Shown here piece by piece: positions 1,997 to 61,312 of a stretch of DNA of 64,000 nt. Below the pieces are notes generated by a model that did not search any database, was not told the origin of the DNA, and was given only the letters and a program-made list of their open reading frames with translations. Location: positions 416,001-480,000 of the forward strand of contig OY970212.1 of NCBI GenBank assembly GCA_963713925.1, read 5' to 3'. Each line of letters opens with the position of its first letter. Within the stretch, counting starts at the first letter, position 1. Source of the stretch: an uncultured bacterium. GTDB lineage: Bacteria; Babelota; Babeliae; Babelales; Vermiphilaceae. Position numbers and translations under genes: made by a program.

Positions 1997-2021
1997 GGGC
2001 CCTCCATGTTTCACATGGGGT
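1997..2021 (+). repeat. GGNCCC mini-hairpin element copy
   Basis: gggccctccatg-tttca-catggggt; same architecture as copies at 2472, 18610, 20089, 20917, 43140, 60398, 61141, 61242. Confidence 0.55.
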
Positions 2022-2030
2022 ATAGCTTTT

Positions 2031-2383
2031 GGGGGCGTACTGGTTTCGACGGGTTTTTGGTCGGGACGAGAGCATGCCGAGCGTTGACTGAGTGCTCGTT
2101 AAACAATTGGTTCAACAATAAGTGCAGAACACGCACCAGCTGCTGCCTAATAGGCAGTAACCTTGATAGAAAAGCGCGCTTATCCGTTTGACTATCAAGT
2201 ATTTACCCAGATAAGACTGTTGCATCAAAGTCATATAGCCTAATAGATGCAGCAAAATTATAGGCTGTCTTAGAACATCAGGCCGCTTTTAGCCAGATTT
2301 CTTCGTATCAATAAAAGCTAAGCATGAAGCGCTTGTGTCGATTGATTATTCGGACATGGGTTCAACTCCCATCGCCTCCACCA
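2031..2383 (+). ncRNA. ssrA: tmRNA; tag reading frame (A)AEHAPAAA* at 2124-2150
   Basis: 5' GGGGGCG..TGGTTTCGAC, 3' T-arm ATGGGTTCAACTCCCAT-CGCCTCCACCA with G3-U pair; follows smpB; tag ends in AA-stop. Confidence 0.96.
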
Positions 2384-2624
2384 GTCTTCGCTTATCCGGG
2401 CCTTCCGGCTCGGAAAGCTACGCCTGGCTTGCGCCATATCAAATGACTTTATCCAAAAAAGAGCGAAGACCGGTCCCAAACGAAGGTAGCGGAGTTTGGG
2501 GGAAAATACTGTCCGGTGAATTTTAACATTTCCTGAGGTTTTTGCTTCGAAGTAAGAATGTAGCCTGGACTATGCTTGGAACCCAAAACTTCGCTTATCC
2601 TTCCGGCTCGGCAAGCTACGACTG
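2384..2624 (+). repeat. tRNA-3'-appended structured element, tmRNA copy (core to 2571, nested hairpin 2472-2501, partial duplicate 2589-2624)
   Basis: Shares gctacgcctgg, gcgaag, tgtccgg and cctgagg..cttcgaagtaagaa.gtagcctggact with the copies after tRNA-Leu/Tyr/Gly. Confidence 0.8.
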
Positions 2625-2658
2625 AACGGATCTTCCTTTAATCCAAAGAAGAGGTGTT

Positions 2659-3360
2659 ATGATTTCATCACAAAAAAGCAGCACGTTGTTACTTGGGTTG
2701 GGTCTTTCATTTGTAACCTTTTGTGATAAGCAAGAAATACTGACATGGCCTCAGAATGTCCACGTTTGTTGTTCCGGAATTATACGCACAGAAAAGAACA
2801 TTATTCGAACAGATGAATTGCAGGATATTACTATCGTTTATCCTCAGTATGACCCTGAATGTGACCTCCTGAATCAAGAAATAGAAAAAATTGTATGTGC
2901 AGAGCTGCACAACTTTACTGCTACGTGGCAGAAAGAATATGAGGAAAATGCTTCACCGGATTCTCCGTGGCCACCGTTTCATTTCGCGTTTTCATGTTCA
3001 TATCGAGTTGCACATGAAGATAATGAACTGATAAGTATATTACTCAGATTTGAGCGTTATATTGGAGGAGCTCATGGCCAGCGTACATTCAAATCATTTA
3101 ATTATGATCGTAAAAATAACAAAATGATTACTATTGAAGAACTAGTGTCAGAAGCATTGTTGCCCACATTGAGTTCATTATGTTCACAATCGTTGGAGAG
3201 CCAAGGAATGGAGATATATTACAAAGAAGGCATTGAACCGGTATATGACAATTTTAGGCACGTAACCTGCACTCCGGATACGATAACTATTCAGTTTGAT
3301 GAATATCAAGTCTGTTGCTATGCAATGGGCGCACCGAGTGTCACCATTGCACAGCAATGA
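2659..3360 (+). CDS. DUF3298/DUF4163 (RsiV/PdaC-like) exported protein
   Basis: YIGGAHG..FNYD..ITIEEL and C-terminal FDEYQVCCYAMGAPSVTI signature. Confidence 0.75.
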   Translation: MISSQKSSTLLLGLGLSFVTFCDKQEILTWPQNVHVCCSGIIRTEKNIIRTDELQDITIVYPQYDPECDLLNQEIEKIVCAELHNFTATWQKEYEENASPDSPWPPFHFAFSCSYRVAHEDNELISILLRFERYIGGAHGQRTFKSFNYDRKNNKMITIEELVSEALLPTLSSLCSQSLESQGMEIYYKEGIEPVYDNFRHVTCTPDTITIQFDEYQVCCYAMGAPSVTIAQQ

Positions 3361-3392
3361 TTATCTTCTGATTTTTGCGGATATTTGCTTTT

Positions 3393-3722
3393 TTAGTTTC
3401 GGGATATGTCTTTTTTTTGTATTATGAGACACGACTTTCCATTTTTGTCGACCGTTTCATTGATGGTTATGAGATCATTTTCTTTGATATCATTAACTTG
3501 AGTTTTCGATGATGCGTAAGCATTTTTGTATCCTATTTCCATTCTTGACGCATTTGGAAGATGTTGAAAAGGTTCTTTGCCTTGGGCATAGATTGTAATC
3601 TCAGATATATTATCCTCAAAATTGCCTCTTGCTATAATATCTTTGCCTGTGTTGTTTTTCACTGTAATTGCTAGAAGTTGGCTTGCGCTTATCAGAGCTA
3701 TGACGGCTAGTACTTTTTTCAT
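3393..3722 (-). CDS. Hypothetical exported protein
   Basis: MKKVLAVIALISASQLLA signal peptide, AAGGAA upstream. Confidence 0.7.
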   Translation of the reverse strand: MKKVLAVIALISASQLLAITVKNNTGKDIIARGNFEDNISEITIYAQGKEPFQHLPNASRMEIGYKNAYASSKTQVNDIKENDLITINETVDKNGKSCLIIQKKDISRN

Positions 3723-3825
3723 AAAATTCCTTATTTTCATTGAAACTTCATTTTCCTGATAGGATATTAAAAATTAATTTGGTTATGCAAGTGATCGAGA
3801 AAAATTAAAGACGACCAAGGGTATT

Positions 3826-60219: not shown

Positions 60220-60485
60220 GGCTTTGCCCAAAGGGCTACGCCTGGCGCAGCCAGTGGTTAAGGTAGAATAGCTAATATTGATAGCAGGAATGCGAAGCCT
60301 GTCCGGCGAAGTTTATGAGGTTTTACTTCGGAGTAAGAACGTAGCCTGGACTGGAAAAATAAATTCCTCTATTATAAAAGCTTATCCGGGGCTTTTCACC
60401 CAAGTTACGCTTTGCTTCACTTGGGACCCGATTTTCGCCTCGGCTGCGTGCGCCATAGCTCTTCGAGCGACGACGGGCCAGACTT
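60220..60485 (+). repeat. tRNA-3'-appended structured element, Tyr copy (core to 60354, plus tail with nested hairpin 60398-60429)
   Basis: Aligns to the Leu and Gly copies. Confidence 0.88.
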
Positions 60486-60560
60486 CGCTATAAAGCGACG
60501 GGATTCCCATAGCTTTGATTTGAAAATTGCCAAGTATAAATGGAACTTGGGTATAAATAT

Positions 60561-60636
60561 GCGGGAATAGCTCAATTGGTAGAGCGGCAGCCTTCCAAGC
60601 TGTAGGTTGCGGGTTCGAGTCCCGTTTCCCGCTCCA
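60561..60636 (+). tRNA. tRNA-Gly(TCC)
   Basis: Cloverleaf, TCC anticodon, U73, CCA. Confidence 0.97.
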
Positions 60637-60781
60637 GGCTTCACCCATAAAGGGTTACGCCTGGCGCAGCCAGTTGCTAAGGTAGAGCGGTCTATATTGA
60701 TAGAACAAGCGTGAAGCCTGTCCGGCGAAGTTTAAAGCTTCCTGAGGTCTTACTTCGGAGTAAGAACGTAGCCCGGACTGG
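60637..60781 (+). repeat. tRNA-3'-appended structured element, Gly copy
   Basis: Aligns to the Leu and Tyr copies. Confidence 0.88.
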
Positions 60782-60789
60782 AACAACAA

Positions 60790-60910
60790 CCCGCTCATTT
60801 CCTTTAGAAATGGCTGGGCAGGCCAGCAAAAAAGGTTTTGAAATTTTGTTAATATTGAGAGTGCAATAGCGTAGGCTGTCACGCCATAGCTCTTTGAGCG
60901 ACGGTTGACT
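60790..60910 (+). repeat. Orphan copy of the Thr-type variant element
   Basis: ggctgggcaggccagcaaaaaag.ttttga shared with 61176-61205. Confidence 0.7.
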
Positions 60911-61050
60911 ATGTTGTTAGGCGTCTTCATTTTTAGCCTGTACGAGTAAAGAAATCCGGATATTTATTCCGGTCTGCATTTGAAAATTTTTTAAGAAACC
61001 AGGATTTATCGATTAATGAATACCTGGTTTCTGTTTGAAATTCTAGGAGC

Positions 61051-61126
61051 GCCGGTGTAGCTCAGCTGGTAGAGCAACTGATTTGTAATCAGTAGGTCGT
61101 TGGTTCAAGTCCAATCACCGGCTCCA
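61051..61126 (+). tRNA. tRNA-Thr(TGT)
   Basis: actga-tt-TGT-aa-tcagt, CCA. Confidence 0.97.
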
Positions 61127-61312
61127 GCCTTCGCTATATCACCCAAGCAGTACTGCTTGGGTCCGATAGAGCTTCGGCTGGGCAGGCCAGCAAAAAAGAT
61201 TTTGAGATATTATCGATTGCTGGCAGTAAAAAGCGATGGCTGGGTCCCAAAATGTAGTGAAACGAAATTTTGGGTTATATGCTGTCTCGCCATGGCCTTG
61301 GCGGACGCGGAC
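61127..61312 (+). repeat. tRNA-3'-appended element, Thr-type variant with two nested hairpins (61141-61164, 61242-61275)
   Basis: ccagcc..ggctgg and agccttcgct..agcgatggct pairings at the same positions as in the other copies. Confidence 0.75.

Follow-up and report, generated by a model that had tools for sequence, protein, structure and literature searches.

Rickettsia palindromic elements (RPEs) are described as palindromic repeats of ~150 bp that encode a conserved peptide and lie in frame, in either orientation, within unrelated housekeeping genes (PMC10969869). Repetitive extragenic palindromes (REPs) of the GTAG/CGTC kind are described as having an unpaired 4-nt tag, a 5-13 bp stem with G-T pairs and a 3-nt tail, and as forming head-to-head dimers (PMC3733652). 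Here we report on a hairpin of 25-35 nt that works like RPEs and is built like a REP, but fails defining features of both. It was picked out in a window of 64,000 nt, that is, positions 416001-480000 of contig OY970212.1 from an uncultured bacterium of the Vermiphilaceae (phylum Babelota). This genome (G000) is a single contig of 1,318,721 bases with 40.8% G+C and 95.75% completeness, and is the only member of its genus within the genome collection used. The best matches to its release factor 2 are 59-75% and come from Babeliales/Dependentiae records.

Like RPEs, the hairpin is a palindrome of an intracellular bacterium that inserts in frame into conserved protein genes in either orientation, with no enzyme known. 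Unlike them, it is 25-35 nt rather than ~150 bp long, carries no conserved peptide, has mostly unique cores (169 of 180), nests in itself and belongs to another phylum. With REPs it shares a 20-40 bp palindrome, an unpaired tag, a short tail, a high copy number, a mostly extragenic location with some intragenic copies, and an uneven occurrence among species. However, its tag is G(n)Y matched to a C-run instead of GTAG or CGTC, no gene of a REP-associated tyrosine transposase (RAYT, Y1) flanks it, and it shows 6-7 nt duplications, self-nesting and no bias away from divergent spacers.

In the NTS/SsnA pair, as described in PMC11893778, cutting takes place a few nt upstream and hinges on the 3 nt preceding the palindrome, and SsnA needs the stem sequence. 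The hairpin resembles NTS/SRM in being an oriented ~30-nt hairpin of single-stranded DNA (ssDNA) with a stem foot rich in C/G and conserved bases to either side, in a genome with small GIY-YIG genes; it differs in that none of 180 copies matches SRM, the stem sequence is free, and two carrier genomes have no small GIY-YIG gene. Miniature inverted-repeat transposable elements differ in that the hairpin monomer lacks terminal inverted repeats of 4-30 bp; as for a flanking target duplication, the hairpin has a variable one of 6-7 nt, clear at a minority of sites and absent at others. The small dispersed repeats SDR1-8 of Nostoc (Elhai 2008) are reportedly structured repeats of 20-30 nt lying inside other repeats and inside themselves; they belong to other sequence families and another phylum. 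Nostoc small dispersed repeats are cited in PMC3116915.

The yeast mitochondrial GC clusters (GC42), described in PMC4478555 as tiny, polymorphic GC-rich palindromes with short flanking direct repeats and no proven enzyme, are the nearest case with flanking repeats and no enzyme. They likewise have a reduced AT-rich genome, presence/absence polymorphism, constrained stems and mergers, whereas their repeats are fixed at 2-3 nt (AG, ACT) and their copies near-identical, as opposed to the variable 6-7 nt repeats and divergent copies of the hairpin; theirs is an organelle, not a bacterium. In the literature on Babeliae/Dependentiae we found no description of such a hairpin, and the supplementary repeat lists of PMC3733652 and PMC11893778 might hold a related motif. 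New here are the definition of the family, the signal of target duplication, the coupling of the two runs together with a dimer explanation for it, the polymorphism among congeners and a negative enzyme survey.

Strict copies were defined by a GG[C/T]CCC lead, at least 7 pairs and a closing GGG. This pattern occurs 180 times in the genome versus 0-5 times in ten block shuffles, and removal of six long nested readings leaves 174 distinct cores. With the third base of the lead free (GGNCCC), there are 207 matches genome-wide versus 3-9 in six Markov shuffles, and 8 in the window versus a mean of 0.17 and a maximum of 3 in 200 block shuffles. The hairpin family is real and far above chance, frequency against shuffled sequence being a test set beforehand in a preliminary description of the window. 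No Rfam family overlapping the repeats was found in an Rfam scan.

The preliminary description had cited nine hairpins, and the motif is present at all nine sites, seven being intact (2472-2500, 20918-20943, 43141-43162 and 61243-61274 on the + strand, 20090-20119, 60399-60428 and 61142-61164 on the - strand) and two degenerate (1996-2020 and 18611-18642). The 8 window matches are the seven intact ones and a chance-like one at 45580. As for the tag, given earlier as GG(T/C/A), GG[C/T] stands and GGA does not: GGCCCC leads a hairpin at 102 of 373 sites and GGTCCC at 82 of 262, but GGACCC at only 9 of 236. When the 64 possible 3-base leaders were scanned, just GGC, GGT and the reverse read of the tail stood out.

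The unit opens with G(n)-Y-C(n) and ~4 variable pairs; a loop is followed by the partner arm and G(n), and the unit closes with a tail of 3 bases, TAA in most cases (n = 3-5). It is ~25-35 bases long, and its 7-8 bp stem is usually topped by a G-A mismatch or a GNA/GNA loop. Cores span 20-36 nt overall and come in two classes, short (20-26 nt) and long (28-33 nt), the latter having an internal loop plus an apical stem of 2-3 bp. The ends are fixed, as G is found at -1 in 168/180 and T at +1 in 152/180, with +2 to +6 being A-rich; the 4-nt tag is GGGC in 91, GGGT in 77 and other in 12 of the 180. The real tag is not simply a 5' GG but a G-run whose length matches the C-run, and the 3-base tail and the frequent target duplication had gone unseen. 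Among 82 GGT copies, both runs are at least 4 long in 29, neither is in 46, and the two are discordant in 7 (Fisher P 8e-15); matched lengths are 3/3 in 41, 4/4 in 24 and 5/5 in 3.

The stem sequence is free, yet pairing is kept on one strand. At the single free stem position of 157 G-GGY-CCC..GGGT candidates, G-T occurs 42 times versus 2 times for A-C. A GNA/GNA loop is present in 48 copies and a reverse-strand TNC/TNC loop in 0. It follows that folding is of importance for the tagged strand alone. In 112 of 174 cores, G-A is the first mismatch met above the stem, and the middle bases of the GNA/GNA loops are complementary 13 times versus 13.6 expected; what had been read as 'GAA/GUA loops' are in fact 3x3 internal loops with a free middle base. 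Sheared G-A pairs stabilise GNA/GNA and GNA loops in single-stranded DNA.

Insertion can be read from paralogous sites, empty ones being found for 29 of the 180 copies by an automated search. The REP-like host family A has 34 empty-loop copies genome-wide and ~17 with the hairpin at several different positions, sometimes nested to two or three levels; the hairpin also nests in itself, and some filled hosts have plainly multiplied as composites. In the window, as first described, a gcttatcc host is filled at 18593 and 60380 and empty at 2389, and a REP arm is filled at 43117 and empty at 5640. The reported filling of the gcgaag host after tmRNA and its emptiness after Leu, Tyr and Gly also stand, but the Thr copy (61243) sits in a different host, ggct-gtc.cgccat.

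Clean insertions consist of core, 3-base tail and duplication. The duplication is 7 nt long at 168171, as compared with the empty site at 1277450, and 6 nt long at 44342, at 1126590 and in the inner nested copy at 726323. Other filled sites have a 2-4 base duplication plus a short leader, and the bases added beyond the core number 8-11 in nine filled/empty pairs (hand-entered values). When flank matches were scanned by offset, they peaked at 9-11 nt (17, 15 and 9 copies versus 2.6 each). The test set was 123 independent sites, that is, 174 cores minus 20 tandem and 31 redundant ones; at least 5 of 6 flank positions match at 18 of them versus 4.3 in permutations (maximum 12 in 1000). The duplications vary in length, begin with A and finish in G. 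Tandem arrays in the genomes G236, G237 and G246 repeat a 6-7 nt flank, which differs by genome.

The monomer ends, G(n)YC(n) and G(n)TAA, are not inverted, and the element is palindromic only as head-to-head pairs. In 800 kb of the relative G254, 21 of 44 copies are in head-to-head pairs sharing the tag, around a central GGGG-W-CCCC and often inside a larger 140-base repeat. Such pairs on a palindromic G(n)-W-C(n) could offer a simple origin for the matched runs.

Presence and absence among relatives was the second test set beforehand, and polymorphism is shown in congeners of another genus, g10, because G000 has no congener in the collection. These congeners are 69-82% identical in coding DNA. 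One in-frame coding copy is present in 4 of 11 and decayed in three of these, a paired copy is in 2 of 11, and an intergenic array is in 1 of 8. Of 261 genomes searched across the phylum, 5 have a pattern with G3, and each belongs to the family of G000; this pattern misses the G4 form, for which the search covered the 80 family genomes only. The G4 pattern occurs in 18 of these 80, with zero in the reversed control, and 12 carry at least 10 copies. Its counts are 47 in G000, 53 in G246 versus 0 in its congener G020, and few in some others; ten of the eleven g10 genomes carry it (3-53 copies) and G252 has 0. In a one-gene quick tree of 38 rows (G246, G020, G253 and G004 left out), carriers are scattered, and G013, the sister of G000, has none.

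Over 996 kb, G006 carries 25 copies, of which four follow the end of a tRNA or tmRNA at a distance of 5-9 bases. In several relatives (L150, L147, L157, L160, L163, L218, L223, L224), a long-class copy lies antisense just behind a tRNA/tmRNA 3' end, L224 also having a small GIY-YIG gene ~430 bases off; this spot may be an ancestral niche. Elsewhere, viral contigs gave 0 matches for two patterns, and metagenomes gave 9 for a single pattern, of which 7 lie in low-G+C surroundings resembling Babeliales and 2 are chance-like. Sequencing runs yielded three soil contig sets from one study at low cover, with no RNA set among those listed.

Copies deep in long open reading frames (ORFs) number 27 versus ~122 expected, a depletion of copies there. 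Labels from 20 of 24 copy-bearing ORFs scanned include a class I tRNA synthetase, presumably ValRS, PrmC, a Mur ligase, an acyl-CoA synthetase, phosphoglucose isomerase, thymidylate kinase and iPGM. Six coding hosts were aligned, with four clear gains of 9-14 residues exactly at the copy (tRNA synthetase, 9-10 aa, 4 orthologues; PrmC, 10, Mur ligase, 14, and acyl-CoA synthetase, 13-14, 5 orthologues each) and two resting on one orthologue. The inserted peptides differ among hosts, save for one shared subfamily. In the OPT transporter of the window, the loop has 44 aa versus a median of 34 in 25 orthologues, though it is variable and two of them have 43 and 46.

Among intergenic copies, the three spacer types are filled 83/33/18 versus 81/31/21 expected from spacer length (P 0.71), and no transcript-strand bias is seen between co-directional genes (44:33) or in ORFs (28:33). 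A preference for hairpin targets had been proposed. Flanks do contain a repeated 18-mer at 39 of 141 intergenic copies versus 6.4% of control sites, an excess arising partly because filled hosts multiply. On the other hand, rejoined flanks pair across the junction at 66 of 141 (47%) versus 45% in controls, and most copies lie in unique DNA and some in coding genes. Nesting is common; a general preference for hairpin targets is supported in part only, and a strict one is not borne out.

The element has fixed ends and a one-strand fold, inserts into repeats, itself and genes, leaves duplications of variable length, nests and is polymorphic. It is very probably mobile DNA, and its first portrayal as an independent miniature mobile hairpin of the REP/RPE kind is supported. 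As to the route, we lean to the view that this non-coding, polymorphic hairpin spreads by copy-in, with one folded DNA strand as the source and with enzymes provided in trans. The tagged strand would fold as ssDNA and be recognised by shape, namely the G/C foot and a 7-bp stem topped by the sheared G-A. A broken end of the target whose last base is G could then prime on the G-run and copy the hairpin with its A-rich tail, and rejoining of the target 6-7 bases back would produce the duplication. If priming started slightly higher up the donor, by a few bases, it would give a short leader and a shorter duplication, slippage between duplications would give tandem arrays, and head-to-head pairs on a shared palindromic G(n)-W-C(n) site would give matched runs. 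The copies are likely tolerated passengers, and the nicking likely comes from host repair functions or a small hairpin-binding nuclease.

Several observations weigh against copy-in from a folded strand. No enzyme was found in the mover survey, no movement was observed, and no orthologous empty DNA site was readable for any G000 copy. At 105 of the 123 test sites the match is below threshold, i.e., there is no clear duplication, the 9-11 nt offset was picked after the offset scan, and the PrmC and tRNA-synthetase insertions are 30-nt units with no duplication. The leader as an inverted copy of the element's own arm was ruled out. The dimer origin of the run coupling is borrowed from G254, because only 1 of 180 G000 copies is in a tag-sharing pair. 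In addition, G-T tolerance fits RNA as well as ssDNA, and a mild leading-strand excess (107:73, P 0.014) is unexplained.

For the mover, no tested family (Y1/RAYT, RVT_1, IS110, DUF559, small GIY-YIG) is common to all carriers. IS110 is present in 8 of 80 genomes, 4 of the 12 with at least 10 copies versus 4 of the other 68, these being kin and not independent, and DUF559 in 6 of 80, with no carrier among them and hence in none of the 12. Tyrosine recombinases gave XerC/D-sized matches in carriers and the non-carrier alike. No obvious mover was seen by eye among 137 of 308 proteins (up to 330 aa) common to G000, G006 and 800 kb of G254, a weak test. ORFs bracketed by copies were considered as movers and rejected, as they are ordinary genes or spurious. 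Incidentally, G000 has three identical 313-aa IS110 genes (C1, 678473, 1121445 and 1276223), each preceded by a CGTC-like repeat; in G254 (689496) an IS110 end lies ~200 bases from a head-to-head hairpin pair; and an IS200/IS605-type remnant at G000:C1:735690-735950 (L111) consists of a hairpin and a 30-residue Y1 fragment.

A narrower form of the copy-in view, which we consider less likely than not, is that the shape-defined ~30-base element copies from folded ssDNA with ordinary host repair enzymes only, leaving 6-7 base duplications.

It is rather unlikely that an Ssn-like ssDNA nuclease, encoded by a small stand-alone GIY-YIG gene, has the hairpin as its cognate repeat, in which case it would bind the hairpin, cut a few bases 5' of the stem and so start the spread. 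The tag-stem-tail anatomy and the strand specificity are as in the NTS/SsnA pair, but the SRM match is lacking. G000 has four such genes of 80-103 aa (C1:104377, 141659, 353985 and 1102706; L112-L115). One of them, the only adjacent case, has a copy 65 nt away nested in its flanking repeat, while its 81%-identical paralogue has that repeat empty; the other three genes are 2.4-5.8 kb from the nearest copy. Moreover, the repeats flanking each gene differ in family: one gene has a CGTC-like hairpin, two paralogues have inverted pairs of the family A arm, and one has a tRNA-downstream cassette. In g10, a small GIY-YIG gene is present in the carriers G251, G257, G009 and G254 and absent in the non-carrier G252, these being the five genomes covered (G250, G253, G255 and G259 left out). 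However, a long UvrC-sized match is all that two carriers show, namely G246 (53 copies on one contig, 92% complete) and G006 (25 copies, 61% complete), and several small GIY-YIG genes are present in non-carriers, for example G020 and G012. Gene-less versions of the tRNA-downstream cassette follow tmRNA, Leu, Tyr, Gly and Thr in the window.

An RNA route, in which target-primed reverse transcription would spread the hairpin as a minute element akin to short interspersed elements, is improbable. It would account for the A-rich 3' tail, the variable duplications starting with A and ending in G, and the G-T wobble pairs, and RNA-mediated copying is mentioned in PMC4478555 as suspected for yeast mitochondrial GC clusters. 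But RVT_1, found in 11 of 80 family genomes, occurs in just 1 of the 12 with at least 10 copies and is absent from G000, and there is no orientation bias to transcription.

It is very improbable that the hairpins serve the host as signals, be it as terminators or as RNA stabilisers, or that they originate by local slippage and travel only inside larger repeats. Stems are intact while many flanking duplications are absent or decayed, several relatives have a copy 5-9 nt behind a tRNA or tmRNA end, and the composite multiplication of some filled hosts is clear. On the other hand, a T-rich tract follows the stem in just 19 of 174 (17 on the other strand), convergent spacers are not preferred, both orientations occur, copies decay after insertion in three congeners, there are 123 non-redundant contexts, and insertions lie in unrelated core genes. 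An intrinsic terminator was rejected, there being no U-tract excess after the stem and no placement at gene 3' ends.

Insertion by HUH enzymes is not expected to give target duplications, which counts against a true REP moved by a RAYT/HUH transposase since lost or missed. Although PMC3733652 describes for REPs every one of these features (an unpaired tag of 4 nt, a stem, a tail of 3 nt, dimers arranged head to head, and copies within genes), we consider this the most improbable route, as the tag is GGGC/GGGT in 168 of 180 and never GTAG or CGTC, divergent spacers are not avoided, and Y1 is represented by only the 30-residue fragment in G000, by none in G246 and G006, and by three identical 142-aa IS200-sized copies in G254.

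Table 1 Hairpin copies and comparison sites in the window (window coordinates)
Position	Strand	State	Context	Remarks
1996..2023	+	Degenerate copy	7 nt before tmRNA 5' end	G4, C-run broken by T, 8-bp stem, TAT tail
2389..2415	+	Empty comparison site	Host repeat gcttatcc..ctcgg	
2472..2503	+	Intact, long class	Host repeat gcgaag-cc-tgtcc after tmRNA	GAA/GGA loop; 39 nt longer than empty host copies; flanks AAGACCG / AATACTG resemble drifted duplication of AAGCCTG
5640..5690	+	Empty	REP-like host arm (family A)	
18608..18642	-	Degenerate, long class	gcttatc..ctcg host after tRNA-Leu	3' GGG is GGA
20087..20120	-	Intact, long class	Within OPT-family transporter ORF 19221-20867	In frame, antisense
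20917..20946	+	Intact, short class	Start of ORF 20892-22637 (putative start)	C5
43140..43165	+	Intact, short class	Within family A arm 43117-43190	33 nt added; AAGT on both sides, 4-nt leader
60396..60429	-	Intact, long class	gcttatcc..ctcgg host after tRNA-Tyr	GAA/GTA loop; 40 nt added
61139..61164	-	Intact, short class	15 nt after tRNA-Thr(TGT)	Sole GGA-tagged cited copy
61242..61277	+	Intact, long class	ggct-gtc.cgccat host	GTA/GAA loop; 41 nt added, GCTG flanking both sides; same host repeat empty at ~60868

The tRNA-downstream cassettes of the window lie at 2384-2640, 18423-18700, 60220-60510, 60637-60910 and 61127-61320. The same GNA/GNA internal loop is found in these cassettes and in family A arms, on the strand opposite to the tRNA, which suggests a structural code shared across unrelated repeat families. 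In most filled family A arms (e.g., 43117-43190), a leader of 3-4 bases can pair with what follows the right-hand duplication (TTTC/GAAA, TTGC/GCAA, TTTAC/GTAAA), and the host stem is thereby extended. Also in the window, an 866-aa ORF at 37733-40333 has tandem units of 285-300 nt plus 150 nt (LVIVD / beta-propeller repeats) and lies between two similar 177-aa ORFs 3872 bases apart.

Elsewhere in G000, two tandem copies at C1:631323-631391 in a Na+/H+ antiporter gene produce a repeated 13-residue peptide, and a copy lies inside the ORF of a MavL-like ADP-ribosylhydrolase domain protein at C1:281053-282663 (L179; Pfam E 8e-122). Two versions of 132 residues from an rRNA methyltransferase-like ORF, 95% identical and 3.7 kb apart, lie at C1:363416 and 367105. 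An FAD oxidoreductase at G011:C3:16740-16870 (L210; also L217) has ~55 extra residues made of two other repeats and the hairpin, all in frame.

No enzyme has been proven for RPEs, CGTC-type REPs, SDRs or organellar GC clusters, and the way in which they move has therefore long been an open question. The hairpin brings readable junctions to it, in the form of paralogous filled and empty sites, duplications, nested and tandem copies, and congeners with and without the hairpin; together with a short list of conserved determinants, these allow tests of mechanism to be designed with 60-base oligonucleotides. The hairpin also extends RPE-like peptide insertion to core genes of Dependentiae. If host repair enzymes alone suffice, it would rank with the smallest bacterial mobile elements that make duplications, would require neither a transposase nor a nuclease gene nor a reverse transcriptase of its own, and would steadily supply essential proteins with new peptide loops.

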